DNA from: Escherichia phage p000v
Sequence record: NC_055781.1
Strand: one strand, 5' to 3'
DNA length: 64,000 nt
The notes below the pieces were generated by a model. It saw only the letters and a list, made by a program, of their open reading frames with translations. It was not told where the DNA came from and searched no databases. How positions within the stretch are numbered: the first letter of the stretch is position 1; the number at the start of each line of letters is the position of its first letter. Both the position numbers and the translations under genes were made by a program. This document shows, one piece after another, positions 5,606 to 54,874 of this stretch.

Positions 5606-5861
5606 AGTGTACGGGTATGACTCTACTATTCATAAATGCATTTATTGTGATAATGCGAAACGATTGCTGACTGTTAAGAAACAGCCGTTCGAATTCATTA
5701 ATGTTATGCCAGAAAAAGGTGTTTTTGATGATGAGAAAATTGCTGAGCTTCTGGTTAAGCTTGGACGTGAATCACAAGTCGGATTGACTATGCCTCAAGT
5801 GTTTGCTCCTGACGGAAGTCACATTGGTGGATTTGACCAACTACGAGAATATTTTAAATGA
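5598..5861 (+). CDS. nrdC: glutaredoxin-like thioredoxin NrdC
   Basis: MFKVYGYDS..KCIYCDNAK..PQVFAPDGSHIGGFDQLREYFK matches recalled T4 NrdC almost residue for residue. Confidence 0.85.
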   Translation: MFKVYGYDSTIHKCIYCDNAKRLLTVKKQPFEFINVMPEKGVFDDEKIAELLVKLGRESQVGLTMPQVFAPDGSHIGGFDQLREYFK

Positions 5862-6154
5862 GTATTGATTTAACTTTCCCTGGCCCTTATGACCAGGGTG
5901 AATTAGAAGCTTTATTATATCAAGAAATGTGCTCTCGTGCCAAGAACGATATTCAGTATGCTATCGATAATCCATGGGGCGAATTTCGAGTAATGATGGG
6001 TAATCGAATCATCGGTGTCCAATGGCGATTCGTTGGCCTTGAGCCTGAGGACTATGAAGAAAACGAGCACGGTGACTGGATTCCTGTTGGTGAATATCAC
6101 TGGGAATACGGTGGTCCTGATTTTGAAGTCTCTTGTTCATGGGTAGAACAATAA
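5858..6154 (+). CDS. hypothetical protein
   Basis: ORF track 98 aa; coupled start. Confidence 0.5.
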   Translation: MSIDLTFPGPYDQGELEALLYQEMCSRAKNDIQYAIDNPWGEFRVMMGNRIIGVQWRFVGLEPEDYEENEHGDWIPVGEYHWEYGGPDFEVSCSWVEQ

Positions 6155-6172
6155 CCTGCGAGAAAATTTTAA

Positions 6173-6529
6173 ATGACATATTCATTAAATCTTAAAGATT
6201 TCCAGGATGTATACGAAGTTTGTGCCAACGAACTTGGTCCTGATGCTCCAACTATTATTGAAGTTTTAAATGTGCTCCCTTCATCATTAGCTTACGAAGC
6301 CAAATCATGGGGATGGAACGACACTGTCGTTCGTGATGACCTTTACGTCCTGATGAACGACATGATGGTTAAAAAGGCAGAACCGGTTGCACCAATGGTT
6401 ACCATTACCATTGAAGAATATAATCGCCTGCAAGCCATTGAAGAGCTTCTGTGGAACATTGAATGTGACCTGCCGTCAGGGCTAGAATCCTGGATTGATT
6501 ATGAAGAGCTCAATAAACTCCGGGGTTAA
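6173..6529 (+). CDS. hypothetical protein
   Basis: ORF track 118 aa. Confidence 0.5.
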   Translation: MTYSLNLKDFQDVYEVCANELGPDAPTIIEVLNVLPSSLAYEAKSWGWNDTVVRDDLYVLMNDMMVKKAEPVAPMVTITIEEYNRLQAIEELLWNIECDLPSGLESWIDYEELNKLRG

Positions 6530-6829
6530 ACCGTGGTATTCTGCTCGATGGGAGACTGTCGAGCCAGACGTCGAAACAGTTTACAACGACGAAGAAACGT
6601 GTTATGATGAACCTACAGTAAACGATATGATTGATTTGGAAATGGGAAGAGATTATTATGCAAGTTAAATTATTGTACCGTTTATTAAAAAGTGGCAAGC
6701 ATGATTGGTATTTGCTTATTAAAACCGATCCGAATTTTTTCTCTGGACAACCATTTACAGTTCGTCCTACTAAACGTCAGCTTCGCAAAGCTAAACGTTC
6801 TCATCGTAACTTTTATAGAGAATATTGAT

Positions 6830-7243
6830 ATGAATATTTCTGAAACTCGCGGTAAATGGTTCAAGATTGTTAAAGAAGACGAAGAACTACAAGTCAAGTT
6901 TCCTGAATTAAAGAAAGGAACAATCATCAAGGTAATTGGTACTACTACCGAAGATGGTTATGGCGACCATGGCATTATCGAAGTGATGTTGAACACAGGT
7001 GAGAAACTTTGCATCTATGACCGTGATACTTCTCTTTGGTGCTTCTGGGAATCCCATTCAATAGATGAACTCGAAGAAATTGACCAAGTAGTTTGTGATG
7101 GTGGACTTGGTGAATTCGAAGGTGAACGTATTTCTTATGCTTTAGCTAAATTAGCTGGTCAAGAAAATAATGACGGTTATGAAGGTAATCTGATGCAAGC
7201 CGCAGCGGAATACATTGAATATTTAGAAAGACGTTTAAGTTAA
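6830..7243 (+). CDS. hypothetical acidic protein
   Basis: Internal ATG at 6830 directly after upstream stop (TGATATG); 5' part of tracked ORF overlaps another ORF. Confidence 0.5.
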   Translation: MNISETRGKWFKIVKEDEELQVKFPELKKGTIIKVIGTTTEDGYGDHGIIEVMLNTGEKLCIYDRDTSLWCFWESHSIDELEEIDQVVCDGGLGEFEGERISYALAKLAGQENNDGYEGNLMQAAAEYIEYLERRLS

Positions 7244-7248
7244 TAAAT

Positions 7249-7273
7249 ACCCTTATCTATTTAAGGTAAGGGT
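7249..7273 (+). promoter_or_regulatory. hairpin ACCCTTA...TAAGGGT enclosing the Shine-Dalgarno of gene 49
   Basis: 7 bp inverted repeat; 3' arm contains AAGGG immediately 5' of ATG at 7279. Confidence 0.4.
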
Positions 7274-7278
7274 TTATT

Positions 7279-7752
7279 ATGTTATTATCTGGCAAATTAT
7301 ACAAAGAAGAAAAACAAAAATTTTATGATGCACAGAACGGTAAGTGTCCTATTTGCCACCGTGAATTAGACCCTGATGTTCAAGGTAACCATCTTGACCA
7401 CGACCACGAGTTAAACGGGCCAAAAGCCGGTAGAGTTCGTGGATTACTCTGTAATCTGTGCAACGCAGCAGAAGGCCAAATGAAGCATAAGTTCAACCGT
7501 TCTGGTCTTAAAGGTCAAAACGTTGATTACCTCGAATGGCTTGAAGCTCTTCTTGCTTATTTGAAACAAGATTATTCTGATAATAATATCCATCCTAATT
7601 TTGTTCCAGACAAAACTAAAGAGTTCTCAAGACTAGGTAAAGAGGAAATGATGGCTGAGATGCTTCAAAGAGGATTTGAATATAATGAATCTGATACTAA
7701 AACACAATTAATAGCTTCATTCAAAAAGCAGCTTAGAAAGAGTTTAAAATGA
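7279..7752 (+). CDS. 49: endonuclease VII (Holliday junction resolvase)
   Basis: 157 aa; near-identical to recalled T4 gp49 (MLL.GKLYKEEKQKFYDAQNGKC.IC..EL.PDVQ.NHLDHDHELNGPKAG). Confidence 0.9.
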   Translation: MLLSGKLYKEEKQKFYDAQNGKCPICHRELDPDVQGNHLDHDHELNGPKAGRVRGLLCNLCNAAEGQMKHKFNRSGLKGQNVDYLEWLEALLAYLKQDYSDNNIHPNFVPDKTKEFSRLGKEEMMAEMLQRGFEYNESDTKTQLIASFKKQLRKSLK

Positions 7753-9566
7753 AAATTGAAAAAGAAATTGAAGGATTAATTTATAAAACTAATAAAGATC
7801 TTTTGAACGAGAATGCTAATAAAGATTCTCGTGTTTTTCCAACTCAACGGGACCTTATGGCTGGTATTGTGTCTAAGCACATTGCCAAAAATATGGTCCC
7901 GTCTTTTATTATGAATGCGCATGAAAGTGGAATTATCCACATGCATGATATTGATTATTCTCCTGCTCTTCCGTTTACTAATTGTTGTTTAGTCGATTTA
8001 AAGGGGATGCTTGAGAACGGATTTAAATTAGGCAATGCTCAAATTGAAACGCCTAAATCGATTGGTGTTGCTACTGCAATTATGGCACAAATTACTGCAC
8101 AAGTTGCTTCACATCAGTATGGCGGAACTACATTTGCAAATGTCGATAAAGTTCTTTCTCCTTATGTTAAACGTACATACGCTAAACATGTTGAAGATGC
8201 AGAAAAATGGCAAATCGCTGATGCGTTGAATTATGCTCAATCTAAAACAGAAAAAGACGTATACGATGCATTCCAAGCTTATGAATATGAAGTAAATACT
8301 CTCTTTAGTTCAAACGGACAAACGCCTTTTGTAACAATTACATTTGGTACGGGAACCGATTGGACTGAACGAATGATTCAGAAGGCAATTCTGAAAAATC
8401 GGATTAAAGGTCTTGGTCGTGATGGGATAACTCCTATTTTTCCTAAACTTGTTATGTTTGTTGAAGAAGGTGTTAATCTTTATAAAGATGATCCAAACTA
8501 TGATATTAAACAACTTGCGTTAGAATGTGCAAGCAAAAGAATGTATCCTGACATTATTTCGGTTAAGAATAATAAAGCTATTACCGGTTCTTCAGTTCCT
8601 GTTTCTCCAATGGGTTGCCGTAGTTTCTTGAGCGTATGGAAAGATTCAACTGGAAATGAAATTCTTGACGGTCGTAATAATCTCGGTGTTGTAACACTGA
8701 ATCTTCCTCGCATCGCATTAGATTCTTATATTGGAACACAGTTCAATGAACAGAAATTTGTTGAATTATTCAATGAACGAATGGATTTATGTTTTGAAGC
8801 TTTGATGTGTAGAATTAGTTCCTTAAAAGGAGTTAAAGCGACTGTTGCTCCTATTCTTTACCAAGAAGGTGCATTCGGGGTTCGTCTTAAACCTGATGAC
8901 GATATAATTGAGTTATTTAAAAACGGTAGAAGTTCAGTGTCTTTAGGATACATCGGTATTCATGAATTGAATATTCTTGTTGGTCGTGATATTGGACAAG
9001 AAATTTTAACTAAAATGAATGCTCATCTTAAACAGTGGACTGAAAGAACTGGTTTTGCTTTTAGTTTGTATTCTACTCCTGCTGAAAACCTTTGTTATCG
9101 CTTCTGTAAACTCGATACAGAAAAATATGGAAGTGTAAAAGATGTTACCGATAAAGGCTGGTACACTAACAGTTTCCACGTTTCAGTAGAAGAAAATATT
9201 ACTCCGTTTGAAAAGATTTCTCGTGAAGCGCCATATCATTTCATTGCGACAGGTGGTCACATTTCTTATGTTGAACTTCCAGATATGAAAAACAATTTAA
9301 AGGGACTTGAGGCCGTCTGGGATTATGCTGCACAACATTTAGATTATTTTGGTGTTAATATGCCAGTGGATAAATGTTTTACATGTGGAAGTACCCATGA
9401 AATGACTCCTACTGAAAACGGATTTGTTTGTTCAGTTTGCGGAGAAACTGATCCTAAAAAGATGAACACCATAAGAAGAACATGCGGTTATTTGGGAAAT
9501 CCGAACGAACGCGGATTTAATCTCGGTAAAAATAAAGAAATCATGCATAGGGTTAAACACCAATGA
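7749..9566 (+). CDS. nrdD: anaerobic ribonucleoside-triphosphate reductase NrdD
   Basis: 605 aa; C-terminal glycyl-radical motif RRTCGYLG and Cys cluster; uninterrupted reading frame. Confidence 0.92.
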   Translation: MKIEKEIEGLIYKTNKDLLNENANKDSRVFPTQRDLMAGIVSKHIAKNMVPSFIMNAHESGIIHMHDIDYSPALPFTNCCLVDLKGMLENGFKLGNAQIETPKSIGVATAIMAQITAQVASHQYGGTTFANVDKVLSPYVKRTYAKHVEDAEKWQIADALNYAQSKTEKDVYDAFQAYEYEVNTLFSSNGQTPFVTITFGTGTDWTERMIQKAILKNRIKGLGRDGITPIFPKLVMFVEEGVNLYKDDPNYDIKQLALECASKRMYPDIISVKNNKAITGSSVPVSPMGCRSFLSVWKDSTGNEILDGRNNLGVVTLNLPRIALDSYIGTQFNEQKFVELFNERMDLCFEALMCRISSLKGVKATVAPILYQEGAFGVRLKPDDDIIELFKNGRSSVSLGYIGIHELNILVGRDIGQEILTKMNAHLKQWTERTGFAFSLYSTPAENLCYRFCKLDTEKYGSVKDVTDKGWYTNSFHVSVEENITPFEKISREAPYHFIATGGHISYVELPDMKNNLKGLEAVWDYAAQHLDYFGVNMPVDKCFTCGSTHEMTPTENGFVCSVCGETDPKKMNTIRRTCGYLGNPNERGFNLGKNKEIMHRVKHQ

Positions 9567-24395: not shown

Positions 24396-25031
24396 ATGAA
24401 AACTACACCAATCACTATCGCTATTGACGCAATCGTAAAACAAGCTTCATCTCTTGCCACTATGGCTAAAGTAATTAGTCAAAACTCTGCCCGATATAAT
24501 GCTATTCTTGAAACTCTTCGTCGCCCTGGACTGAGTAATTATGAAAGCCGAGTAATTATTACAGGTGTTGGTAAGAACGCTAATATCGCAACTAAAGCTT
24601 CCGAGACTTTTGCTTCACTAGGTATTCCTAGCATGTATTTGAACACCGGGCATTATTCTCATGGCGACGCAGGATTTATTGCACCTAATGATGTATTAGT
24701 TCACATCAGTCGTTCTGGTAAGACTGAAGAAATGATAGGTGTTGCTAAACATCTTCGTATGATTCGTCCTCAGGTTAAACAGATTCTGTTACATTGTAAC
24801 CCTGACATTCCGCAAGAATACGAAGCTCTTTTTGATTATACGTTCTGTACAGGCATCGCGGTAGAGGTTGATGAGAATTCTCTGGCTCCGACCATGTCCA
24901 CTACATTGTTGTTAGCGCTTATCGATACGTTTGCTATCAACCTTTCGTCTGAACGTGGATTTACCTCTAATGACTTCCTTAAGTTCCACCCTGGTGGTGC
25001 ACTAGGTGCCATGTTACGAGGCGAACAATGA
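24396..25031 (+). CDS. SIS-domain sugar-phosphate isomerase, KdsD/KpsF-like arabinose-5-phosphate isomerase without CBS domains
   Basis: ITGVGKNANIATKASETFASLGIPS, SHGDAGFIAPNDVLVHISRSGKTEE and HPGGALG resemble the API SIS domain. Confidence 0.8.
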   Translation: MKTTPITIAIDAIVKQASSLATMAKVISQNSARYNAILETLRRPGLSNYESRVIITGVGKNANIATKASETFASLGIPSMYLNTGHYSHGDAGFIAPNDVLVHISRSGKTEEMIGVAKHLRMIRPQVKQILLHCNPDIPQEYEALFDYTFCTGIAVEVDENSLAPTMSTTLLLALIDTFAINLSSERGFTSNDFLKFHPGGALGAMLRGEQ

Positions 25032-25171
25032 AAGCAATAACAATAGGACTTTTACTATTGATGCTTGTCATGACTATCTACTGGAGCTTAACGGCTCCAG
25101 TAATGATTCCGACTCTTATAATCGGATGGATTATGATTGGACTACAAGCAAAGTATGAATGCTTTAACTAG
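25028..25171 (+). CDS. small hydrophobic peptide (47 aa, two predicted TM helices)
   Basis: ATGA overlap with upstream stop; below ORF-track size cutoff. Confidence 0.35.
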   Translation: MKAITIGLLLLMLVMTIYWSLTAPVMIPTLIIGWIMIGLQAKYECFN

Positions 25172-25184
25172 AATAGTGTACAAT
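25158..25184 (+). promoter_or_regulatory. candidate middle promoter (MotA box TGCTTTA, -10 TACAAT)
   Basis: TGCTTTA at 25160-25166, 12 nt spacer, TACAAT at 25179-25184. Confidence 0.4.
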
Positions 25185-25212
25185 ACACCTACTTACCAAT
25201 GAGGACTTCAAC

Positions 25213-26898
25213 ATGAAAAAAGCTGTTATTCTTGGTGCTGGACTGGCAACTCGTTTGTATCCAATAACGCACCATATTCCTAAGGTGCTTGTTAACTATA
25301 AACAAGACACTATTCTGAGCAATTTGTATACAATTTATTCTGACCTTGGCGCAGATGAAATTATTGTAGTAGTTCATTCAAAATTTGCTGAAACTGTTCG
25401 AGCTTATTGCGAGCAAGAAGGGTTCAATGTGACTATTCGTACAGTTGATGAAGCGTATGGTTCTGCTTATGCTCTTGCTAAATTATACAAAGATTTAGAT
25501 GGCCATAACGTAATTGTTAACTGGTGTGATATTATTCCTGACTTTGGTTCATGGTCTTGGAATGTTAACGCAATCTATGTTAAGGGTGATGAATGTCGAT
25601 ATAATTTCGATGGTGAAAATATCACTAACGTAGGTTCAACAGGTGGTAATGTTGTAGGAATTTATCAGTTCAAAGACTGGGAATTCTACATGGGTTCTAC
25701 TGATGAGGAAATTCACGAATACTGCAAAGGTCGTGATTTCGTAGAATTCCTTTACGGCAGTGCATTCAATAAATCAGAGCTTATGAATCTAATTGATTTA
25801 GGTGATATGCCTAAACTTGAAAAGGCTCATGAAGTTCGTGAACTGAATCGTAGTTTTAATGCAGTTGAAATTGGCGAAGAAACTGTAACTAAATTCGCGT
25901 TAACCGAACAAGGTCGAGCTCTTCAAAAAGATGAGATTTCATGGTATTTGAAAGTGAAATCAGATTCAGTTCCTCAGTTAGTTTCGGTAAATGAAAATAA
26001 TTTTGAAATGGAACGTATTAAAGGTAAGCCGGCATTTGAATATATTAAATCCAAATCAAGTCTTGCTCGTCCACAAATTGTTGATGCAATTTTAGATGCA
26101 CTGAAATTCAGCACGGACACTTATTTTGTAAGTCCTGAAACTGTTCGCCGTGATTTCACTAAAGAGTTCTATACGAAAGTTATTGATCGTTGTGAAAGCA
26201 TTCAGCCATTGATTGATTCATTTGGTAAAATCACACGTGTGAACTACACTAAGATTGGACGTCTGAAGCCAATGTTGAAACAAGCTTTAGAACATCTTAT
26301 TCGTTATCATAACCGTTCTCAGGGACAGTACTCTGTTATTCATGGTGACCCGAACTTCAGTAATACTATGATTACCGATAACGGCGAAGTCAAGTTTATC
26401 GACCCTCGTGGATATTTTGGTGAAACCAAGATTTACGGGCCAAAATTGTATGATGAAGCTAAAGTGCTTTATGCTGTTTCAGGTTATGATGAATTCAATG
26501 CTAATCCGACCTGGGGTCAGTTTACTATTGATGAAACAACTTGTAATGTGACTATTAACATCAATCCATTAGTTTACAAATATGGAAAGATGAGTTCGTT
26601 TAACGAGTATCATCATTTGGCAGTAGCAATTATCTGGATTGCATTAGGTGGTTATTTCAAGAATAATCCACTTAAAGCGGTTGCCGCATATTATAAAGGT
26701 ATGGAACTTCTGACTAAGCAATTACGTAACATGGGCCGTGTACTTCAAGACGGCTCTATTAGTTATGACGTAGCAGAACCTGTAACGGCTACTCTGATTA
26801 CAAAAAATCCTGGTAAATGGGTACTAACTGATAAAGAAACTGGTGTTTCCTATCGTCCAATCGGCGGCGATATCACTCATCAATGGGAACGAATCTAA
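25213..26898 (+). CDS. bifunctional sugar-1-phosphate nucleotidyltransferase / APH-like sugar kinase
   Basis: N-terminus ILGAGLATRLYPITHHIPKVLV is an NTP-transferase signature; C-terminal HGDPNFSNTMITDNGEVKFIDPRGYFG is an APH/choline-kinase catalytic motif. Confidence 0.8.
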   Translation: MKKAVILGAGLATRLYPITHHIPKVLVNYKQDTILSNLYTIYSDLGADEIIVVVHSKFAETVRAYCEQEGFNVTIRTVDEAYGSAYALAKLYKDLDGHNVIVNWCDIIPDFGSWSWNVNAIYVKGDECRYNFDGENITNVGSTGGNVVGIYQFKDWEFYMGSTDEEIHEYCKGRDFVEFLYGSAFNKSELMNLIDLGDMPKLEKAHEVRELNRSFNAVEIGEETVTKFALTEQGRALQKDEISWYLKVKSDSVPQLVSVNENNFEMERIKGKPAFEYIKSKSSLARPQIVDAILDALKFSTDTYFVSPETVRRDFTKEFYTKVIDRCESIQPLIDSFGKITRVNYTKIGRLKPMLKQALEHLIRYHNRSQGQYSVIHGDPNFSNTMITDNGEVKFIDPRGYFGETKIYGPKLYDEAKVLYAVSGYDEFNANPTWGQFTIDETTCNVTININPLVYKYGKMSSFNEYHHLAVAIIWIALGGYFKNNPLKAVAAYYKGMELLTKQLRNMGRVLQDGSISYDVAEPVTATLITKNPGKWVLTDKETGVSYRPIGGDITHQWERI

Positions 26899-27284
26899 TG
26901 CACCGTGTAGAAAACATGCTTAATCTTTGTTTTGATGTCGATGATTGTATAACAGAGTGGAATAACAATCGTGATTACGTGAACTTCAAACCAGACGTCG
27001 AAATGGTGTCTGCCATTAATGCCCTGTATGATGCAGGGCATACCATAACGCTTTACACTGCCCGTGGTATGAAGTCGGTAGGTCCTGGTCGTATAGCAAT
27101 TGACATTCTCCCAAGTCTGATTCAGAACTTGGAAAACATTGGTTTGAAGTACCATAATTTGCTAACACATAAACCAGTATATGATTGGATTATCGACGAC
27201 AAAGCTATGCGTCCTGACGAATTCAAAGCTCTTATGAATAAAGGCGAATTCGAAACATTTAAATCATATAAACCAAATCTATAA
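26883..27284 (+). CDS. HAD-superfamily phosphatase (small, capless)
   Basis: Motif I FDVDDCIT, motif II TLYTAR, motif III/IV K..(n)..IIDDKA; alternative ATG at 26898. Confidence 0.7.
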   Translation: MGTNLMHRVENMLNLCFDVDDCITEWNNNRDYVNFKPDVEMVSAINALYDAGHTITLYTARGMKSVGPGRIAIDILPSLIQNLENIGLKYHNLLTHKPVYDWIIDDKAMRPDEFKALMNKGEFETFKSYKPNL

Positions 27285-27341
27285 TAATTTAAGTAAGACC
27301 TGCAAAAACCATCGCATCAATTAACGCGAGATGCAAAAAAA

Positions 27342-28502
27342 ATGAATACTTTTAAAATCGGAACGAATTTTGATTTAGCTCTTCTTGATAAAATCGTAGA
27401 GCTCAATAAAACCTATCCTAATAGCTTGATAAACGAAGTATATGGCTCTACAAGAGAAATGGCTTTTGTAGCAGCCAGACCTGATTTTAGGCTTCCTGAC
27501 GTTGACAAAAAGATGTTAGAAGACTACGTTAAACGTTGTAACGAATTAGGTATTTGCTTTAACTATACACTCAACACGATAAATCCTGGTTCAAAAAGAG
27601 AACTAGTTGAGTGGAAGAAGAAAGCTATTCAGGATTATGTTCAGTATCTTTGGTCAATAGGCGTATGGCGTATTACTATCGCTAACCCTGTTGTTATGGA
27701 AATTGTTCGTGAAGTCAATAAAGATATTGAGATTGAAGTTTCAACAATTCTACATGTCGATGCGGTAACTCAAATCAAATACTTACATGACCAATATAAC
27801 ATCAAAAAGGTCTGTTGCGGAATTCATAAGAACCGTTCAGTTTCTTTCCTGAAGCGTGCAGCAGAGTTTTGCAATAAGAACAATATAATATTTGAAGTTC
27901 TTGTAAATGAGTTCTGTTCTAATGCTGGTAAAGGGTATACAACACATTGTAGTTATCGTGACTCTTGCTATATTTTCCATAGTACTGATGTTACCGCTGA
28001 TGATGCTAAATCCTTAAATGGATATCCTATGCAGCACTGTATTAAAGCTCGTGATACAGACCCATTTAACTGGTTGAGAACTCGTTTTGTTCGTCCTCAA
28101 GATTTGAAACTTTATAATGATATTGGTATCACTCAATTCAAAGTTTCAGGACGTACAGGTAGCACAGACTACATTTTGAAAGTTCTTGAAGCATACGCTT
28201 CTGAAAAGTTTGAAGGTAATTTGTTAGAACTGTGGAAGCCTTTAGAGACTATTTTCACTCTTGAAAATGAGACTGAGTTTTCACATACAGTAAATATTGA
28301 AACCTCTTTGTTAGATGGCTTTTTAGAAAAAAGGTGGTTCAGACATCCAGATTTTGATTGTGCTAATGAAATCTGTGGGTCAACGTGTACATATTGTGAA
28401 AGGTATTATAAACGTCAATTATCTAAAAACGGGTTAGCAGAAAACTCCATATCTATTATTGATATAACTAACTCTGATGACGCTTTGAGGTACCCGGAAT
28501 GA
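27342..28502 (+). CDS. Cys-rich protein of unknown function (possible metal or Fe-S enzyme)
   Basis: 386 aa; Cys clusters CC, C-x10-C-x6-C and C-x4-C-x3-C-x2-C; no recognisable family by eye. Confidence 0.6.
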   Translation: MNTFKIGTNFDLALLDKIVELNKTYPNSLINEVYGSTREMAFVAARPDFRLPDVDKKMLEDYVKRCNELGICFNYTLNTINPGSKRELVEWKKKAIQDYVQYLWSIGVWRITIANPVVMEIVREVNKDIEIEVSTILHVDAVTQIKYLHDQYNIKKVCCGIHKNRSVSFLKRAAEFCNKNNIIFEVLVNEFCSNAGKGYTTHCSYRDSCYIFHSTDVTADDAKSLNGYPMQHCIKARDTDPFNWLRTRFVRPQDLKLYNDIGITQFKVSGRTGSTDYILKVLEAYASEKFEGNLLELWKPLETIFTLENETEFSHTVNIETSLLDGFLEKRWFRHPDFDCANEICGSTCTYCERYYKRQLSKNGLAENSISIIDITNSDDALRYPE

Positions 28503-28738
28503 TTTCTAGAAAAAGTTTTAATTATAAACTTAACGAAGAGATTTTGACTATGAAACTGAACACTAACGAACAAATTCTTAAAAAGGCCCTTATGGGCCTG
28601 TTTGAAACCAAAGCGGCTAAAGTGATTAAAGAACCTGTTCAATTGGAATACTACGCTGATGCATTTCTTCATAGTGTTCTTGGAAGTATCGATGCTGAAG
28701 CTTTACGTTATATCAACATTGTCAAGAAATTCAAATAA
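28499..28738 (+). CDS. hypothetical protein
   Basis: ATGA overlap with upstream stop. Confidence 0.4.
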   Translation: MISRKSFNYKLNEEILTMKLNTNEQILKKALMGLFETKAAKVIKEPVQLEYYADAFLHSVLGSIDAEALRYINIVKKFK

Positions 28739-28761
28739 GCTTTACGAATTGAGTATATAAT
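28738..28761 (+). promoter_or_regulatory. candidate middle promoter (MotA box AGCTTTAC, -10 TATAAT)
   Basis: GCTTTA, 10 nt spacer, TATAAT upstream of gene 42. Confidence 0.4.
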
Positions 28762-28780
28762 AAATTGTATTGAGGTAAAC

Positions 28781-29497
28781 ATGGGAAAACATAACACAAT
28801 GAAATATATCAAAGCCGCAGATTTTCAAACCGCATTTAAAGCAGTCAATCGTGAAATTTTAGAAAACCCGGAATTCGTAACTGATTCTCGTATTGGACGT
28901 TGTAATGAAATTGGGTCTATGACAGTAGTTGTTGACACTCCATCATCATTCAAAATGACCGACCCACGTATTAACCGCATCTCTTATGAATATGCCGAAG
29001 ACTTCTGGAAGTTTATGATTTCTGGTGGTACCAACGCAGAAGAAGCGTTTAAGGCATATCCTAATGTCGCTAAATTTATTTCTAAACCAAAATCAGATGT
29101 TTTGCCGGCGAACTTCAACACTTTCTATGGTCCTCGCATTGCGGCCCAATTACCAACTCTTCTAAAAGAACTTAAAGAGAAGCCTAACTCCCGAAGAGTT
29201 GTGTTCCAAATTCTAGAAAGTTCTGATCAGGCTTTGCTTGATTCGGACGAAACACTTGAATATCCATGTACTGACTCAGTAACTTATTATATTCGTGATG
29301 GTAAGCTTTATACCCACTGTCATATGCGTTCTCAGAACTGTGCTGTTGTTATGCAGTTGGATTTTTATCTCCAAGGAAAATTACTTCATTATATCGCTAA
29401 CGAATGCGGTGTAGAAGTTGGTGATTATACTCATACCATGGTAAGTGCCCATGTGTTTGAACGTGATTTTGATTATGTTAAAGGATTCCTTGACTAA
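28781..29497 (+). CDS. 42: thymidylate-synthase-fold pyrimidine hydroxymethylase (dCMP hydroxymethylase gp42)
   Basis: TS-like motifs NSRRVV, catalytic Cys in EYPCTDS, HMRSQN; synteny with T4 gene 42. Confidence 0.75.
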   Translation: MGKHNTMKYIKAADFQTAFKAVNREILENPEFVTDSRIGRCNEIGSMTVVVDTPSSFKMTDPRINRISYEYAEDFWKFMISGGTNAEEAFKAYPNVAKFISKPKSDVLPANFNTFYGPRIAAQLPTLLKELKEKPNSRRVVFQILESSDQALLDSDETLEYPCTDSVTYYIRDGKLYTHCHMRSQNCAVVMQLDFYLQGKLLHYIANECGVEVGDYTHTMVSAHVFERDFDYVKGFLD

Positions 29498-30396
29498 TGG
29501 CTATTTTCCGCGTACCAATCTTGAGTATGCGGTCTTATGAAACTGGACAGTATGCTATCCTTAAGGATGGCAACTTCCAACTTCATTTGCACCGTGCTAA
29601 TCCGGGTGATGTGATTACATATCCACGTAATGCATCTGATATTAAAGAATGCGAACGTCTTTTCCCAGAATTTAAGTTTGTTCCATTATGGTATAAAGAT
29701 AACGCGTATAACACTCGTAAATATTTCTGGACTGAAAATGAATTTGTGGTTGATTCATTAATTGATTATTATGATTGTGATTTTCTAATCACAGATATCA
29801 CTGGTTATGGTGGCGCTTTTGATGTGGAATTCAATTTCAATATCACTGCAGACCCTAATAAACCACGTTTTTATATTGATGAATTCTTAAAAACCGACAT
29901 GTTGTCTGTTAATCGTTCACTTCAAACTACTGTGTTGAATGAACGTCAAAAAGAAGTGCTGGTTAACGCAGGTGCAGATGGTAATAAGATTATCGTAACG
30001 CAGAAAGTTATACGTCCTTCCATCATGCAGCGTCTTGTAGGTGATTTGGCTCCTATTCATCTAGATGGTATTTTTCATCCATTTCGAATTAGTGACCCAT
30101 GTTATCGTTTTGAACAAGTGGTTGAATGTGCAATTCAATTAGGTCAACCGCTTTATATAACCGATCCAAATAATAGCTTCGACAGAAATAAGTATCCTGA
30201 AGAAGCGCTGATTCGAATTTTTAAACCAACTAAAACTGAGTACTATCAAATTCTTAAAGGACGTCCGAAAATTCAATATTTCGAAAATCCTGAAGAAGTA
30301 TTCCATCCAGGTCTTGGTGAGTTCATCTACTTTAATGCTTTAATTTCTTCGCCGTATAATATACCTAAATACGAAGATGTCGTAATCGAGGAATAA
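29497..30396 (+). CDS. hypothetical protein occupying the T4 b-gt position
   Basis: 299 aa; coupled start TAATG; no recognisable motif. Confidence 0.55.
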   Translation: MAIFRVPILSMRSYETGQYAILKDGNFQLHLHRANPGDVITYPRNASDIKECERLFPEFKFVPLWYKDNAYNTRKYFWTENEFVVDSLIDYYDCDFLITDITGYGGAFDVEFNFNITADPNKPRFYIDEFLKTDMLSVNRSLQTTVLNERQKEVLVNAGADGNKIIVTQKVIRPSIMQRLVGDLAPIHLDGIFHPFRISDPCYRFEQVVECAIQLGQPLYITDPNNSFDRNKYPEEALIRIFKPTKTEYYQILKGRPKIQYFENPEEVFHPGLGEFIYFNALISSPYNIPKYEDVVIEE

Positions 30397-30397
30397 A

Positions 30398-30946
30398 ATG
30401 GCTAAAATTATTTTAGTAGATGGCCCGGATAATGCCGGTAAAACAACTTTCATTAATGACATAATGGAAATTAGTGAAAGATATGTAAAGATTGATTTCC
30501 CTAAACGAACAGTTGATGGACGTTTCGATGTTAAGTCTCGAAATGAAGTTGGCTGTTTCGAAACGATGTTGAATTATTTAGACCCTACTAAGATTTATCT
30601 GTTAGACCGTGGATATATTAGTAACTGGGTTTATGGACGTATTCGACAAGATGCGGACTCGATTCTTGACGTTTATGAACAGGACTATGTTCGTCTTTGC
30701 CAAAACCATGATGTGTTCACAATTATTTTAACACGTAACGAAATGACTGAAAGTTTTGAAGACGACCTTATTACTTTGTCTTCATTCGGTTTTAATACAG
30801 TCATTTCACATTTTGAAGAGTTTGCAATTCATAACAAAATCCAAACATATCAATTACTTAATCATGATGGTGCTAACAAAGTTATAGGATTTAATGCAAG
30901 CGAACGTAATGGTTTGATTACAGAAATCATCAAATGGGCTCGTTAA
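30398..30946 (+). CDS. P-loop kinase-like protein
   Basis: Walker A GPDNAGKTT and LLDRGY motif reminiscent of nucleoside/nucleotide kinases. Confidence 0.55.
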   Translation: MAKIILVDGPDNAGKTTFINDIMEISERYVKIDFPKRTVDGRFDVKSRNEVGCFETMLNYLDPTKIYLLDRGYISNWVYGRIRQDADSILDVYEQDYVRLCQNHDVFTIILTRNEMTESFEDDLITLSSFGFNTVISHFEEFAIHNKIQTYQLLNHDGANKVIGFNASERNGLITEIIKWAR

Positions 30947-48594: not shown

Positions 48595-50415
48595 ATGATT
48601 AAAAATGAAATTAAGGTATTGTCGGATGTAGAACATATTAAGAAACGTAGTGGCATGTATATTGGTTCTTCTGCTAAAGAAGCCCACGAGCGTTTTTTGT
48701 TTGGTAAATATCAACAAGTTGAATATGTTCCTGGTCTGGTTAAATTAATCGATGAGATTATTGACAACTCGGTTGATGAAGCTATTCGTACATCATTTAA
48801 GTTTGCAAATAAAATTGATGTGCAAATTAAAAATAATCAAGTTTCGGTGGAAGATAACGGACGTGGTATTCCTCAAGGTTTAGTTACCGACCAAACAGGT
48901 GAACAAATTCCTGGGCCTGTAGCAGCCTGGACTATTCCAAAGGCCGGTGGTAACTTTGGTGATGACTCTGAACGTAAGACTGGTGGTATGAACGGCGTCG
49001 GGAGTAGTTTAACTAATATCTTCTCTACGTTGTTTACAGGCATCACGTCAGATGGCGAAAATGAAATCACTGTTAACTGTTCAAACGGAATGGAAAACAA
49101 ATCATGGTCTTCTAAGAAATCTAAAGGTAAAGGCACTAAAGTAATCTTCACTCCTGATTTCACTTCATTTGAAGAGCATAATTTATCTCAAATTTATTTA
49201 GATATTACTTTAGACCGACTTCAAACATTGGCAGTCGTTTATCCTGATATCAAGTTCACATTTAATGGTAAAAAGGTCGATGGTAATTTTAAACGATTTG
49301 CTAAACAATTTGGTGAAGATAACATCATTCAAGAAAATGATAAAGTCTCTATAGCATTCACAACATCACCAGATGGCTTCCGTCATTTAACTTATGTGAA
49401 TAACATCCATACTAAAAATGGTGGACATCATGTTGAATGTGTAATGGACGATATCTGCGAACATCTTTTGCCGGGTATTAAAAAGAAATATAAGGGTATT
49501 GAAGTCACTAAAGCTCGTGTTAAAGAATGTCTCACAATGTTGATGTTTATTAGAGACATGAGCAACATGCGTTTTGATTCTCAGACTAAAGAACGTTTAA
49601 CGTCAACGTACGGTGATATTCGTAATCATATCCAATTAGATGCTAAGAAAATTGCTCAGGCACTTCTTAAAAATGAAGCCTTGATTATGCCTATTGTTGA
49701 AGCAGCATTAGCTCGTAAATTGGCGGCAGAAAAGGCTGCAGAAACTAAAGCAGCTAAAAAGGCAACTAAAGCTAAGGTTCATAAGCATATTAAAGCTAAC
49801 CAATGTGGTAAAGATGCAGATACGACATTGTTTTTAACAGAAGGTGATTCGGCAATTGGATATCTCATTGATGTTCGTGACCGTGAACTACATGGTGGAT
49901 TCCCATTACGTGGTAAGGTGATGAATAGCTGGGGTATGTCATATGCTGATATGATGAAGAACAAAGAGCTCTTTGATATCTGTGCTATCACGGGTCTTAT
50001 TCTTGGTGAAAAAGCAGAGAATACGAACTATCGTAATATTGCAATTATGACCGATGCCGATCATGACGGCCTTGGAAGTATTTATCCTGCTTTGCTTGCT
50101 TTCTTTAGTAATTGGCCTGAATTGTTTGAACAAGGACGTATTCGCTTTGTTAAAACACCTGTAATTATTGCACAAATTGGCAAAACTCAAAAATGGTTTT
50201 ATACTGTAGCTGAGTATGAAGAAGTTAAAGATACACTGCCTAAGCATAGTATTCGATACATCAAGGGATTGGGCTCACTTCAGCGGGATGAATATAAAGA
50301 AATGATTCAAAACCCTGTGTACGACGTAGTTAAACTTCCTGAAAATTGGAAAGAACTATTTGAAATGCTCATGGGTAACGACCCTGAACTCCGTAAAGAT
50401 TGGATGCTAGGATAA
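48595..50415 (+). CDS. 39: topoisomerase II large subunit (GyrB-like ATPase plus TOPRIM), single uninterrupted ORF
   Basis: GHKL motifs IDEIIDNSVDEA and DNGRGIP; TOPRIM LFLTEGDSA and DADHDG; 606 aa. Confidence 0.92.
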   Translation: MIKNEIKVLSDVEHIKKRSGMYIGSSAKEAHERFLFGKYQQVEYVPGLVKLIDEIIDNSVDEAIRTSFKFANKIDVQIKNNQVSVEDNGRGIPQGLVTDQTGEQIPGPVAAWTIPKAGGNFGDDSERKTGGMNGVGSSLTNIFSTLFTGITSDGENEITVNCSNGMENKSWSSKKSKGKGTKVIFTPDFTSFEEHNLSQIYLDITLDRLQTLAVVYPDIKFTFNGKKVDGNFKRFAKQFGEDNIIQENDKVSIAFTTSPDGFRHLTYVNNIHTKNGGHHVECVMDDICEHLLPGIKKKYKGIEVTKARVKECLTMLMFIRDMSNMRFDSQTKERLTSTYGDIRNHIQLDAKKIAQALLKNEALIMPIVEAALARKLAAEKAAETKAAKKATKAKVHKHIKANQCGKDADTTLFLTEGDSAIGYLIDVRDRELHGGFPLRGKVMNSWGMSYADMMKNKELFDICAITGLILGEKAENTNYRNIAIMTDADHDGLGSIYPALLAFFSNWPELFEQGRIRFVKTPVIIAQIGKTQKWFYTVAEYEEVKDTLPKHSIRYIKGLGSLQRDEYKEMIQNPVYDVVKLPENWKELFEMLMGNDPELRKDWMLG

Positions 50416-51212
50416 TGAATTATCGTAAAATTTATGATAAACTTATCGCTGCGGCTAAAAACCGCAGCACTATTCCTAATTATACTGAAACTCACCATAT
50501 TTTGCCTAAATCTATGGGTGGGAGTAATGCTAAATCAAATCTAGTTAAAATGACCCCTAGAGAGCATTTTATCGCCCATTTATTGCTTTATAAAATTCAT
50601 AAGAACCGTTCTATGCTTATGGCTATTAGAGCTTTTTACATGGGAGCTAGAAATTCTAGAGATTATGATTGGCTTAAACAAGAATTCTCTAAAGAGCACT
50701 CTAGATTTATGAAAGAATGGATTGCTAAAAATGGCAACCCATTTAAAGGTAAAAAACATACTAAAGCAACAAGAGAATTAATGTCACATATTGCTTCACA
50801 ACGTATAGGCGAATTAAATCCGTTTTATGGTAAAACTCATACGCAAGAAGCAATAGATAAAATAATACAGGCCAACAAGTTATCTTGGGAGAATGGGCGA
50901 AAAGCACCTGTAAAAACAAAAGAACACCAGGATAAAATAACTAAATCAAGAATGGAAACATTTAAAACAAAAGGATTTAAACCATACACTCCTAGGTCGG
51001 AAGAAACTAAAGCTAAGACTAGAGAGTTGTATAAATCTAAATATGAAAGAAGGCCTATAAGAATCACAAGTGTAAAAACAGGTGAAACTATTGATTTTAA
51101 CTATCTTTATGAATTAAGGGAGTATTTAGGTATAGGGTCTTCTAATATATTGAAAGCATTAAATAATCCTAACAGAACCTGCAAAGGTTATAAAATGTGT
51201 TGGATGTCCTAA
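50415..51212 (+). CDS. HNH homing endonuclease with NUMOD3-like repeats
   Basis: ETHHILPKSMGG...N...REH HNH motif; repeated NPF(K/Y)GK.HT motifs; start overlaps gene 39 stop (TAATG). Confidence 0.8.
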   Translation: MNYRKIYDKLIAAAKNRSTIPNYTETHHILPKSMGGSNAKSNLVKMTPREHFIAHLLLYKIHKNRSMLMAIRAFYMGARNSRDYDWLKQEFSKEHSRFMKEWIAKNGNPFKGKKHTKATRELMSHIASQRIGELNPFYGKTHTQEAIDKIIQANKLSWENGRKAPVKTKEHQDKITKSRMETFKTKGFKPYTPRSEETKAKTRELYKSKYERRPIRITSVKTGETIDFNYLYELREYLGIGSSNILKALNNPNRTCKGYKMCWMS

Positions 51213-51235
51213 GCTCCTTCGGGAGCTTCATTTTA
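51211..51235 (+). terminator. hairpin AAGCUCC-UUCG-GGAGCUU followed by T-rich run
   Basis: 7 bp stem with UUCG loop. Confidence 0.5.
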
Positions 51236-51254: not shown

Positions 51255-52355
51255 ATGAAAGTTATGTTTATCCCATCTCGCGCAGTCCCATTTAACCCAG
51301 AACGTGTACAAGGTGGTCTTGAAGCAGTACATTTAAATGTATTGAAATATCTTGTGTCCATCGGTGCTGATATTGATTATATCGGCTTTGATAATGACAC
51401 GTTTGGTGACTGGAAGGTTAATCATCATCCTGTTGGTCATCTGACTAAATTCAGTCTAGGTATGAGTTATACTATGGCTCGTAAGATTGTTGAACTAGCC
51501 GGCATCCATGAATACGATTTTGTTGTTACTATGGAACCGACTAAACTAACCGTTCAGGCAATTAAAGACGCAGGTCTCTCTAAAGTTCATAAGAATTTTA
51601 TGGCAACACCATTTGAACCGGTATCTCGTGGCATTGTTCAAATTTGGGACCAGACTATTCAAATTCATAAGAATGGTGGTAAGAGTTATGCTCCTACTAA
51701 AGCCTTCCGTGAATTTGAACGCAAATATTGTTATATGACTTCAGGTCTGACTGACAAAATTGATTATGATTATTGGCGAGCAAATCCGTTGTTTGAAGCC
51801 GAAGATTATCCGGTTATTTGTTTGACTGAAAAGCCAGAAGTTCTTCCGGCGACGGATCTGATTATTAGTGCACAACGTTATGACACTAAAATGCGTCGTA
51901 CTGATGTTGCTCTTGAAGCGATTAAAGCACTAGGCGAAAATGGTGCAGGATACTGTCCTAGTAAATGGGCACCACCAGCTAAATATCCTGTTATTATTGA
52001 TGCTCCACACAGCGAAATCATGGAACGTCTTAAAACAGCTAAAGCACTTATCAATACGTGTCCTGACACGGGTACGGTAGAGAATAGTTCTATTGAAGCC
52101 ATCTCTAAAGGTGTCCCTGTGATTCAGTTAGTTTTTAAGGATTATCCGCACGCGACATTCGAATATGACCCAGATACTGTGCGTGTAGAAATTGATTCCT
52201 CTACTCCTAAGAAAGAAGTAGTTGCGCTTTACACAAAAGCTGTATTAGAATTCACTGACACATACGAAGCTCGAGTTAAACGTGCTGAAGCAGTATGGAA
52301 GAAGTATAACCGAGATGCAGTTGTTGCGATGTGGGATAAAATCTTCACAGCGTAA
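51255..52355 (+). CDS. GT-B fold glycosyltransferase (candidate DNA hmC pentosyl/arabinosyl transferase)
   Basis: N-terminus MKVMFIPSRAV...GGLE and C-terminal ...GTVENSSIEAISKGVPVIQ resemble GT4-type GT-B motifs; 366 aa; lies between gene 39 and rIIA. Confidence 0.75.
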   Translation: MKVMFIPSRAVPFNPERVQGGLEAVHLNVLKYLVSIGADIDYIGFDNDTFGDWKVNHHPVGHLTKFSLGMSYTMARKIVELAGIHEYDFVVTMEPTKLTVQAIKDAGLSKVHKNFMATPFEPVSRGIVQIWDQTIQIHKNGGKSYAPTKAFREFERKYCYMTSGLTDKIDYDYWRANPLFEAEDYPVICLTEKPEVLPATDLIISAQRYDTKMRRTDVALEAIKALGENGAGYCPSKWAPPAKYPVIIDAPHSEIMERLKTAKALINTCPDTGTVENSSIEAISKGVPVIQLVFKDYPHATFEYDPDTVRVEIDSSTPKKEVVALYTKAVLEFTDTYEARVKRAEAVWKKYNRDAVVAMWDKIFTA

Positions 52356-52447
52356 ATCCTGAATCGCCTGAGGCACTATTACACATAAGATGATAGATTA
52401 TATGGTCTTTAGTAATAGTGCCCTAGGAATCTACTGAAGAGAATATT

Positions 52448-52648
52448 ATGAGAACATATAACGTGGACTTGGAACTTTTTGATAAAGCAGTGCTCCGGGA
52501 ATTCCGGCTTATCCAAAGATTTTTTGATATCGAATCAGCAGAGTCCTTTAAAGAACGCTTTAAAGAAATTCGATATAAAATACAAACCGATACAGCTACT
52601 AAAGAAGAACTTCTTGAAGTAGCAGAAATTTTTAAACGTAACTTGTGA
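52448..52648 (+). CDS. small protein upstream of rIIA (rIIA.1 position)
   Basis: Synteny. Confidence 0.5.
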   Translation: MRTYNVDLELFDKAVLREFRLIQRFFDIESAESFKERFKEIRYKIQTDTATKEELLEVAEIFKRNL

Positions 52649-52660
52649 TGAGAGAAAAAT

Positions 52661-54874
52661 ATGATTATTGAAACGGCTAAAGAAACGATTATTGGTTCAG
52701 GCGGTAAGAGCACAGCATTCACTATTCAAGGCAATAGCAAAGTTTATAAGATTTTGTCTAATGACCTTTATACAAACAAAGAATTGGCTTGTGTACGTGA
52801 ATTAATTACAAACTGTATCGATGGACAAATTCTTAACGGTTGCACTGATAAGTTTATTGTTCAGGCTCCAGGTCGTTTAGACCCACGCTTTGTAGTTCGA
52901 GACTTTGGTCCTGGTATGAGCGATTTCACCATTAGAGGTAATGACGAAGAGCCAGGAATCTATAACTCATATTTTGCTTCAACTAAAACATCGAGTAACG
53001 ATTTCATCGGTGGATTCGGACTCGGTTCTAAAGCTCCGCTAGCATATACCGATACGTTTAACCTTACGTCTTATCACAACGGTGAAGTTCGTGGTTACGT
53101 AATCTACCAAGATGACACAGGTCCACAAATTAAGCCGACCTTCGTAGATAAGATGGGTCCTGATGACCGTACGGGTGTAGAAGTAGTTGTACCGGTTAAC
53201 CCGGAAGATTTTGAAAAGTTCGCATCCGAAATTGCATATGTTATGCGTCCTCTAGGTGATATTGCAGAAGTTCGTGGTGTTAAAGATATTAAATACTTCC
53301 CGGAATTTGACGATGTATATTTGGCCAAGGAAGCTCCATGGGGTGAACGTGGTAATATCATGGCTGTTTATGGCGGTATTGTATATCCAATCGGAAGCGT
53401 TATTAAAGAACAAACATGGATGATGACACGATGCACTACAGCTTATATTAAATTCCCTATGGGTGAACTAGATGTAGCTCCGTCTCGTGAAGCATTGTCA
53501 TTTGATAAACGTACGGTAGCAAATATCCATAAACGCGTTGCAGAAATCGATGCTAAATTGTTCGCTGAAGATTCTAAGAAATGGATTGATTGTAAATACC
53601 CACGTCATGTGTTCCGTGAAATTGATTCTCTTGGCTATACCGCTCGTAAATACATGGAAAAGGCTGGGTCTAATATTGAATCACTGAAATACTCTAAAGA
53701 ACAACTAACTTATTCTGAGTTGTACAAACGTTTTAAAATGGGGCCTGAGTGGTGTAATCTTGGTGTCGTATACGATATCGTTGAATCCCCTCGTCTTCGT
53801 CGTATTCGTGAAAGTGGTAGCTCAACGGCAACCATTTCAATTAACAGTCTGATTGGCATTAACATTAAAAACGTTGAAATTGTTATTGACGACGTTAAGG
53901 GACGCGTTCCATTAATGCGAGCTCTTAATTCAATTGAAATGTCTAAAGACGAGGTTAAATTAACTGGTAAAGTTCCACGCGGTTTTGGTAAAAGCGTACT
54001 ATTCGTTGACCCTACAGACGAAGATGCAATGAAACTTCTGGAACGCCTTAAAGTTATCTTTGATGGCGACAACATTAACATGTACAAGACTTCAGAGCTT
54101 TTACAAATCGTTAAGCCATGGATTGAAGTCAGGAAACGGACTAATGAGCCTCGTCCTAAATCGCCAAGTGCTCATCGATTCTTTAAGAATGAAAACGATG
54201 TTTGGGTATCAGAAGACCTCTTTATTCCGGCAAGTGAAGCAGATGAAATCCAAGGTTATGCTATAGTTCGTAATCGTTCTAATGCTGAATGTCTTGACGC
54301 AGATAAAGGTTGGTTGAACTATGACTCCAATTTCTTGACCCGTATTGCTGATTTGTCAGGTATTAAAGAGTTCACTGTAGTTCGTCCACAGATTGCTAAG
54401 AAAGTTCGTAAACTTGGTGAAGTAGAATGTTTGTTCGAAAAATCAATTAATGACTATATTACGCTAATCGATAAAGTGGATTATGATGAGTATGTATCAC
54501 CAAGTCGTAGAGCACAGCCTTATTTGAATCATATTACTCGTAATGAAGAGCTTAACTTCCTTAGTAAGTATTTTAGCTCTAAGAACAAAGAAATCAGTAA
54601 AGACTTTGCAAAACTCTCAACAGTAAATAATCGTTGGGGATGGAATCGATTCGCAGGTGCTACTAATACAGACATGAATAAGAAGTTAGAACTGTGTGCT
54701 AAAATTTTCGATAAGCTTAAAGATAATGCTTACGATAATGATGATAAAATGGTTATTGAATTCGAAACCAATTATCATATTGTGTCAGAATACATGGGAC
54801 GACGTGGTACTCTTTCCAAAGAACAGGTCGCTCAAATCGTTAAATTCATGAAGGCCGTGGAAGCGGCCAAATAA
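52661..54874 (+). CDS. rIIA: rIIA protein
   Basis: 737 aa; N-terminal GHKL-like motif RELITNCIDG; synteny with rIIB. Confidence 0.85.
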   Translation: MIIETAKETIIGSGGKSTAFTIQGNSKVYKILSNDLYTNKELACVRELITNCIDGQILNGCTDKFIVQAPGRLDPRFVVRDFGPGMSDFTIRGNDEEPGIYNSYFASTKTSSNDFIGGFGLGSKAPLAYTDTFNLTSYHNGEVRGYVIYQDDTGPQIKPTFVDKMGPDDRTGVEVVVPVNPEDFEKFASEIAYVMRPLGDIAEVRGVKDIKYFPEFDDVYLAKEAPWGERGNIMAVYGGIVYPIGSVIKEQTWMMTRCTTAYIKFPMGELDVAPSREALSFDKRTVANIHKRVAEIDAKLFAEDSKKWIDCKYPRHVFREIDSLGYTARKYMEKAGSNIESLKYSKEQLTYSELYKRFKMGPEWCNLGVVYDIVESPRLRRIRESGSSTATISINSLIGINIKNVEIVIDDVKGRVPLMRALNSIEMSKDEVKLTGKVPRGFGKSVLFVDPTDEDAMKLLERLKVIFDGDNINMYKTSELLQIVKPWIEVRKRTNEPRPKSPSAHRFFKNENDVWVSEDLFIPASEADEIQGYAIVRNRSNAECLDADKGWLNYDSNFLTRIADLSGIKEFTVVRPQIAKKVRKLGEVECLFEKSINDYITLIDKVDYDEYVSPSRRAQPYLNHITRNEELNFLSKYFSSKNKEISKDFAKLSTVNNRWGWNRFAGATNTDMNKKLELCAKIFDKLKDNAYDNDDKMVIEFETNYHIVSEYMGRRGTLSKEQVAQIVKFMKAVEAAK

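Follow-up and report, generated by a model that had tools for sequence, protein, structure and literature searches.

We analysed an open reading frame (ORF) of 366 amino acids (aa) at 51255-52355 (+) in a stretch of 64,000 nucleotides (nt) from Escherichia phage p000v (NC_055781.1), hereafter termed the window, which holds all the loci listed in Table 1. We consider it likely that this ORF encodes the chain-extending DNA arabinofuranosyltransferase of Mosigvirus, the enzyme that adds a second arabinose to phage DNA. A preliminary description of the window had proposed a transferase that places arabinose on 5-hydroxymethylcytosine (hmC). The assignment to DNA arabinosylation is borne out by the identity of the protein to RB69 gp3 and by homologs that reside in arabinosylation clusters. 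The proposed acceptor is contradicted: the DNA of phages RB69, NP and Bas46/47 contains 5-hydroxycytosine (5hoC), and the thymidylate-synthase (ThyA) homolog of the window carries the substitution D169N. A transferase in contact with the base is probably wrong as well, as a second GT-B protein of 299 aa occurs in all arabinosylating phages, whereas the 366-aa protein accompanies only two or three arabinoses.

Base chemistry, gene copies and sugar number

The window protein and RB69 ORF003c/gp3 are 99% identical (363 of 366 residues, with three amino-acid differences). Thomas et al. 2018 (PMC6024577) found arabinose in RB69 DNA. With custom hidden Markov models and HHpred, they proposed that the arabinosyltransferase for "ara-hmC" is ORF003c (366 aa) and that ORF53_52c and ORF055c are the genes for uridine diphosphate (UDP)-arabinose. 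This is the earlier proposal for RB69-like phages that the preliminary description had mentioned; it also appears in GenBank, where the ortholog at the same locus of phage Bas47 (BASEL) has been labelled "putative hmC-arabinosyltransferase" since 2021.

The chemistry was later determined by tandem mass spectrometry and nuclear magnetic resonance. Lee et al. (bioRxiv 2025, NAR 2026; PMC13326640) found that RB69 cytosines are mono- and di-arabinosylated 5hoC, the disaccharide being beta-D-Araf-(1->3)-alpha-D-Araf (Araf, arabinofuranose), ether-linked at C5 with no methylene bridge. The same study demonstrated experimentally that the ThyA homolog gp48 yields 5-hydroxy-deoxycytidine monophosphate (5-hydroxy-dCMP, or 5hodCMP). 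It also proposed that RB69 gp46:47, a single ORF that a sequencing error had divided, is the first transferase and that gp3 is "beta-arabinosyltransferase 2". The Durham-collection paper (PMC13390438) reported the same chemistry in Mosigvirus NP and called the hmC assignment erroneous. The two groups, working independently, share one sequential model, in which the second transferase is encoded between rIIA and the topoisomerase gene (PMC13326640, PMC13390438). According to PMC12923530, which cites Mahler et al. 2025, Bas46 and Bas47 are doubly arabinosylated, and a passage in PMC13216743, also by citation, states that Bas46 lacking the arabinosyltransferase "Aat" becomes susceptible to a plasmid-borne defence. 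The gene of the RB69 gp3/HY126 type is probably the "Aat" of Mahler et al. 2025; the viable deletion is compatible with a dispensable accessory step, although the citing passage does not specify which of the two transferase genes was removed.

To call the modified base, we aligned E. coli ThyA, T4 gp42, the ThyA homolog of the window, DLP3 gp80 and Thanatos TH1_062. At position 169 of the E. coli enzyme, Asp is found in E. coli ("RSCD") and T4 gp42 ("RSND"), and Asn in the window ("RSQN"), DLP3 gp80 ("RSQN") and Thanatos TH1_062 ("RSEN"). D169N is the signature of 5hodCMP synthases (PMC13326640). Because of this Asn, the window phage is predicted from sequence to make 5hoC rather than hmC.

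We next compared the distribution of the two transferase families, using tblastn against 50,697 phage records. The 299-aa family was detected in 347 records, with hosts including Escherichia, Shigella, Klebsiella, Serratia, Enterobacter, Yersinia, Proteus, Providencia, Edwardsiella, Pectobacterium, Pseudomonas, Acinetobacter and Shewanella. The 366-aa family was detected in 210 records only: about 154 from Mosigvirus (one copy each), 55 from Acinetobacter phages (two places each) and one from Tegunavirus. Protein-database clusters follow the same trend, with at least 136 for the 299-aa family and 5 for the 366-aa family. Among Mosigvirus records, about 154 carry the 366-aa gene and 152 the 299-aa gene, and 55 of the 57 Acinetobacter records that carry the first transferase also carry the 366-aa family. 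The Tegunavirus homolog is less than 60% identical to the family and would represent a third lineage besides Mosigvirus and the Acinetobacter phages.

The copy number of the 366-aa family equals the number of arabinoses minus one in the five phages that are chemically characterised (sugar numbers from PMC13326640, PMC13390438 and PMC12923530). Thanatos-1, with one pentose on its DNA, has no copy; RB69, NicPhage and Bas47, with two arabinoses, have one copy each; and DLP3, with three, has two (gp77 and gp76). This relation is what a chain extender predicts. In addition, because one phage arabinosylates its DNA without the family, the 366-aa protein does not appear to be the first-step enzyme. 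Outside these five, Acinetobacter phage Maestro, which is named among the phages with arabinosylated 5-hydroxy-deoxycytidine, carries two copies. The genes with which the family co-occurs (5hodCMP synthase, UDP-Araf genes and first GT-B) are all present in the window. One candidate for a hidden homolog in Thanatos-1, the 378-aa protein TH1_065 at the position expected for the family, was rejected: it is the ortholog of the U32 protein described below (79% identity), and its hhalign probability against the 366-aa family was only 0.06%.

The Acinetobacter phages provide the closest biochemical evidence. In DLP2 and DLP3, the cluster is ordered as isomerase, pyrophosphorylase/kinase, phosphatase, ThyA homolog, first glycosyltransferase gp79, kinase gp78, gp77, gp76 and gp40/gp41, so that the homologs lie inside the arabinosylation cluster in Lazarusvirus and at a separate locus in Mosigvirus. 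Purified gp76 and gp77, only when combined, use UDP-Araf to attach a third, beta(1->5)-linked Araf to RB69 virion DNA, and single DLP3 transferases were inactive on DNA in which 5hoC replaces C (PMC13326640). The homology of the window protein extends over the full length of gp77 (44.3% identity) and gp76 (41.2%; both compared from positions 5824-8119 of the extracted DLP3 stretch), whereas gp76 and gp77 share 57.7% identity. In a neighbour-joining tree, gp76-like and gp77-like proteins group together at 98.5% bootstrap, with the Mosigvirus protein outside. By these sequence comparisons, gp76 and gp77 are in-paralogs to both of which the Mosigvirus enzyme is co-orthologous, and this phylogeny does not support the published view of RB69 gp3 and DLP3 gp77 as one-to-one counterparts.

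Fold and catalytic residues of the 366-aa protein

An AlphaFold2 model of the protein, built from an 11-sequence alignment, reached a mean predicted local distance difference test (pLDDT) of 91.1 and a predicted template modelling score (pTM) of 0.87. In it, two Rossmann-like beta/alpha/beta domains flank a cleft, as is typical of the GT-B fold. A Foldseek search, which the preliminary description had suggested as a check, returned two Protein Data Bank (PDB) entries first, 9IQZ and 9IR0, at 98% identity and template modelling (TM) scores of 0.94-0.97. Both were released on 2025-07-16, under the titles "phage HY126 glycosyltransferase" (apo) and "phage HY126 glycosyltransferase with UDP", and the latter title indicates that this 98%-identical ortholog binds the UDP of the donor. 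These entries probably stem from He et al. 2026 (Nat Chem Biol), cited as the study that elucidated the HY126 "Afh" pathway; a literature search for the two PDB codes returned unrelated chemistry only. The next Foldseek matches, at 10-14% identity, were enzymes of the GT4 type: PimA, BshA, MshA, WaaG, LmbT and tetrahydrobiopterin glucosyltransferases.

The GT4-like motifs claimed in the preliminary description were therefore correct as to fold, yet they lie below the detection of profile searches: Pfam and NCBIfam gave no match at E<=1 (including Glycos_transf_1 and Glyco_transf_4), and Pfam, NCBIfam and PHROG yielded no functional name for the protein. A transitive link was nevertheless recovered through P0017, a weak metagenomic match that is a genuine Pfam Glycos_transf_1 (PF00534) protein and that hhalign pairs with the C-terminal domain of the 366-aa family at 94% probability. 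Residues invariant across the family include an N-terminal Gly-Gly loop, R208 and the segment E281-A-x3-G-x-P-V. On the strength of the model and of the solved structures that it matches, we classify the 366-aa protein as a GT-B, GT4-like glycosyltransferase.

Cellular GT4 enzymes (PimA, BshA, MshA, WaaG and sucrose-phosphate synthase) are thus the best structural matches beyond the phage orthologs. They share with the 366-aa protein the N-terminal Gly-Gly loop, the Arg/Lys phosphate-binding region and the E-A-x3-G-x-P-V helix, and differ from it in sequence (10-15% identity), in the Pfam match that it lacks and in the acceptor, which for the phage enzyme would be a DNA-borne sugar. The family itself is tiny: among 1.84 billion representative proteins, 16 were found at E<=1e-3 and 10 at E<=1e-10. 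BLASTP detected no similarity of the 366-aa protein to the T4 alpha- and beta-glucosyltransferases (a-gt and b-gt; E 3-7) or to the 299-aa window protein. We also considered net charge and isoelectric point (pI) as an indicator of DNA binding and set them aside as uninformative, as the pI of 6.3 is close to that of the equally acidic T4 a-gt (6.1).

Proposed pathway and competing readings

In the pathway that we propose, the ThyA homolog would make 5-hydroxy-dCMP, which would then be phosphorylated and built into DNA. The SIS isomerase, the 561-aa kinase/uridylyltransferase and the 133-aa phosphatase would supply UDP-D-Araf as the donor. The 299-aa GT-B would place the first alpha-D-Araf on O5 of 5hoC, and the 366-aa GT-B, holding UDP-Araf in its C-terminal Rossmann domain, would link a second arabinose to O3 of the sugar already present on the double-stranded phage DNA. 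The product would be beta-D-Araf-(1->3)-alpha-D-Araf-5-hydroxy-dC, whose second sugar would widen the major-groove shield and alter which host defences act on the DNA. The GT-B fold, the binding of UDP by the HY126 ortholog, the di-arabinose in RB69-type DNA and chain extension by gp76 with gp77 are already established; that the 366-aa enzyme takes the second step alone, and with this linkage and stereochemistry, we infer.

Several observations weigh against this assignment. GT4-type enzymes are usually retaining, which leaves the beta linkage and the alpha-then-beta order unexplained. The canonical EX7E motif of cellular GT4 enzymes is altered in the 366-aa protein, in which Thr272 takes the place of the first Glu; the second Glu is kept (E281), and the family-specific invariant Glu276 gives E-x4-E instead. 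No DLP3 transferase was active by itself, and both paralogs were required for the third addition (PMC13326640), so the 366-aa family may be active only in complexes. The phylogeny offers no one-to-one ortholog whose step could simply be transferred to the 366-aa enzyme. A divergent member of 379 aa (38% identical) is encoded amid structural genes on Logan contig SRR34261890_53613 (10001-11140), next to Peptidase_M23, gp13-like, DUF4815 and terminase genes; this contig is not T4-like in appearance, and the acceptor or context of the family may differ outside Straboviridae. Finally, a direct assay of either RB69 gp3 or the window protein did not turn up in our literature search, Mahler 2025 and He 2026 being beyond its reach.

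The need for both DLP3 paralogs, together with the many chains in the PDB entry (e.g., chain H), would also fit a protein with no catalytic step of its own, serving as an obligate oligomer partner of the 299-aa transferase for efficient arabinosylation overall. We regard this as unlikely: catalytic-type residues are invariant across the family, UDP is present in the crystal of the HY126 ortholog, and the copy number follows the sugar number, which would be unexpected of a pure scaffold. Less likely still is that the 366-aa enzyme is the first, base-proximal transferase, as Thomas 2018 read it, with the base corrected to 5hoC. The family is missing from Thanatos-1 and from about 137 other records that hold the 5hodCMP synthase cluster and the 299-aa GT-B, Thanatos DNA is pentosylated all the same, and gp76 and gp77 work on DNA that is already arabinosylated, with no activity on 5hoC DNA. 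Glycosylation of a non-DNA acceptor (a phage or host protein, a lipid or a cell-envelope glycan) is the most improbable of the three. In its favour, the nearest structural neighbours have lipids, small molecules and glycans as substrates, the window protein lacks a basic pI, and the 38%-identical relative lies among structural genes. Against it, T4 a-gt is a proven DNA enzyme of similar pI, and the homologs are embedded in a DNA-modification cluster, were shown to act on DNA and, within T4-like phages, are limited to those with poly-arabinosylated DNA.

Beyond its probable role in the second step in Mosigvirus, the family lends itself to a broader reading, to which we assign slightly less than even chances: the length of the DNA glycan would be set by the number of paralogs, and the ancestral enzyme would recognise a DNA-borne arabinose and not the base, acting as a portable cassette for the addition of one sugar. 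The gene may then have been duplicated inside the Acinetobacter cluster and moved to the plastic 39-rIIA junction in Mosigvirus. If so, transferring it into a mono-arabinosylating phage would suffice for di-arabinosylated DNA and changed defence evasion.

Genomic context, known systems and significance

The window derives from a Mosigvirus (RB69-like) genome, and its region 50300-52700 matches many Escherichia and Shigella Mosigvirus phages at 96-98% identity. The 366-aa ORF lies exactly where the preliminary description had placed it, at the junction of gene 39 and rIIA; the description left unmentioned the neighbouring HNH/NUMOD3 gene, and the full order is gp39, HNH/NUMOD3, the 366-aa ORF, rIIA.1, rIIA and rIIB. 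Because it matches PHROG 8302 (E=3e-222) and copies at least 95% identical exist in about 154 Mosigvirus records, the ORF is a conserved gene and not a chance reading frame. A Shine-Dalgarno sequence (AAGG) is located about 6-7 nt 5' of its start.

Table 1 Loci of the window and their assignments
Feature	Position	Strand	Remarks
SIS-domain sugar-phosphate isomerase (RB69 gp55-like arabinose-5-phosphate isomerase)	24396-25031	+	Pfam SIS; role proposed in PMC13326640
561-aa bifunctional nucleotidyltransferase/kinase (RB69 ORF53_52c, HY126 AfhE-like)	25213-26898	+	Pfam NTP_transferase and kinase-like C-terminus
133-aa protein (RB69 gp51, HY126 AfhF-like HAD-type phosphatase)	26883-27284	+	Assigned by position and size; function from PMC13326640
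386-aa U32-family protein (RB69 gp50)	27342-28502	+	Pfam Peptidase_U32
ThyA homolog, predicted 5-hydroxy-dCMP synthase (RB69 gp48)	28781-29497	+	Pfam Thymidylat_synt; D169N signature
299-aa GT-B protein (RB69 gp46:47 as one ORF)	29497-30396	+	Adjoins the gene-42 homolog (T4 b-gt slot)
182-aa thymidylate-kinase-like nucleotide kinase (RB69 gp45)	30398-30946	+	PHROG 761 thymidylate kinase
gp39, topoisomerase II large subunit	48595-50415		Single unsplit 606-aa protein
HNH/NUMOD3 homing endonuclease, 270 aa	50400-51212	+	Inserted between gene 39 and the 366-aa transferase gene
366-aa GT-B (GT4-like) glycosyltransferase	51255-52355	+	ATG start; ortholog of RB69 ORF003c/gp3 and of the HY126 glycosyltransferase
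rIIA.1	52448-52648		3' of the 366-aa ORF
rIIA	52661-54874		Followed by rIIB

The start of the HNH/NUMOD3 gene overlaps the stop of gene 39 by 16 nt, and its GC content is 32%, compared with 37% for the window. The insert is present in only about 18 of 184 related records. A scan for promoters and terminators around the 366-aa gene gave counts not above those of shuffled sequence, the sole feature being a hairpin (AAGCTCC-TTCG-GGAGCTT, 51211-51228) after the HNH/NUMOD3 gene. An 11-bp perfect inverted repeat, AGGCACTATTA ... TAATAGTGCCT, with a 33-nt spacer, was detected at 52369-52423 (+), in the 92-nt gap between the stop codon of the transferase and the start of rIIA.1. In Shigella phage JK45 (NC_054940.1; 994-2597 of the extracted stretch), the full 366-aa gene is followed by an extra 136-aa ORF, which matches the C-terminal part of the family and lies between the gene and rIIA.1; it looks like either a partial tandem duplication or an assembly artefact. 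The JK45 record is classed as Tequatrovirus, yet this locus is Mosigvirus-like.

The preliminary description had also stated that the canonical sites lack homologs of a-gt and b-gt. By sequence this holds, as tblastn of both T4 proteins against the whole window returned only noise (E>=1.9), and the a-gt slot between genes 55 and 47 is empty (gp55, a 107-aa ORF, gp47). The b-gt slot (42-uvsX in T4), however, holds the 299-aa GT-B that the description had missed, which is unrelated to T4 b-gt at the sequence level. The 366-aa gene lies outside both sites, between gene 39 and rIIA.1.

The 299-aa GT-B is the probable universal first arabinosyltransferase. It is strongly acidic (pI 5.1 in the window and 4.7 for DLP3 gp79), and a thymidylate-kinase-like kinase lies directly 3' of the first transferase in every cluster examined, including those of DLP2/DLP3 and Thanatos-1. 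Activity on 5hoC-DNA could not be shown, and the mononucleotide is named as a possible substrate of the first arabinosylation (PMC13326640). An acidic transferase with a dedicated kinase is compatible with this possibility.

The predicted nucleoside diphosphate (NDP)-pentose island was found at 24396-30946, about 21-27 kb from the 366-aa gene. The two loci together form the split DNA modification system that had been postulated: the Mosigvirus transferase resides away from the island, whereas its Acinetobacter homologs reside inside it. The reading of the 561-aa protein as a single ORF is a correction by Thomas 2018 (PMC6024577). The activities of AfhE, with UDP-arabinofuranose as the product, are given in PMC13326640 by citation. 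A Pfam search with the 133-aa protein of the island returned no match.

The island also encodes a U32 protein. All 220 phage records that contain it show at least 80% identity, compared with 47-72% for the neighbouring transferase, and it is 79% identical to Thanatos TH1_065. It occurs in phages of Enterobacterales and Shewanella and in none of the Acinetobacter phages, and about 40 Escherichia records have the first transferase without it. It is listed in PMC13326640 only as "sugar or heterocycle reductase", with no discussion in the main text. Known U32 proteins (RlhA, TrhP and UbiU/V) perform O2-independent, prephenate-dependent hydroxylation, including at C5 of cytidine and uridine in RNA. 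The U32 protein of the island might therefore provide an anaerobic route to 5hoC, alongside the O2/flavin-dependent ThyA homolog, and it may deserve more attention than the 366-aa finding itself.

Among known systems, RB69 ORF003c/gp3 and the HY126 glycosyltransferase are the same gene as that of the window, at 99% and 98% identity, at the same locus between gene 39 and rIIA.1 and with the same island; RB69 and most relatives, Bas47 included, lack the HNH/NUMOD3 insert. DLP3 gp76 and gp77 belong to the same family and the same arabinosyl-5hoC system, differing in that two in-paralogous copies reside inside the cluster, compared with one distant copy in the window phage, and in that they jointly make the third sugar. 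T4 a-gt (GT72) and b-gt (GT63) are, like the 366-aa enzyme, phage UDP-sugar-dependent GT-B proteins that decorate modified cytosines after replication. Their acceptor differs: T4 gp42, with Asp169, provides hmC, and the window homolog, with Asn169, is predicted to provide 5hoC. The beta-alpha-glucosyltransferase of T2 and T6 makes gentiobiosyl-hmC and is thus a second transferase that lengthens a DNA monosaccharide to a disaccharide. The logic is shared with the 366-aa enzyme; sugar, base and linkage differ, and the comparison is by analogy.

The gene itself is already known: it was proposed in 2018 and annotated in 2021, its ortholog was crystallised in 2025, and the pathway was revised in 2025-26. 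It raises no new question beyond those of the 2025-26 literature. The explicit comparison of copy number with sugar number, the in-paralogy of gp76 and gp77, the D169N check and the altered EX7E motif are modest additions made here. For annotation, the appropriate label is DNA (arabinosyl-5-hydroxycytosine) arabinofuranosyltransferase, second step, in place of hmC-arabinosyltransferase, and the 299-aa ORF next to the ThyA homolog is best annotated as a probable first transferase. The sugars on its DNA determine which defences, among restriction, CRISPR and glycosylase systems, a therapeutic phage can evade, and the second arabinose is one feature that sets Mosigvirus DNA apart from mono-arabinosylated DNA.

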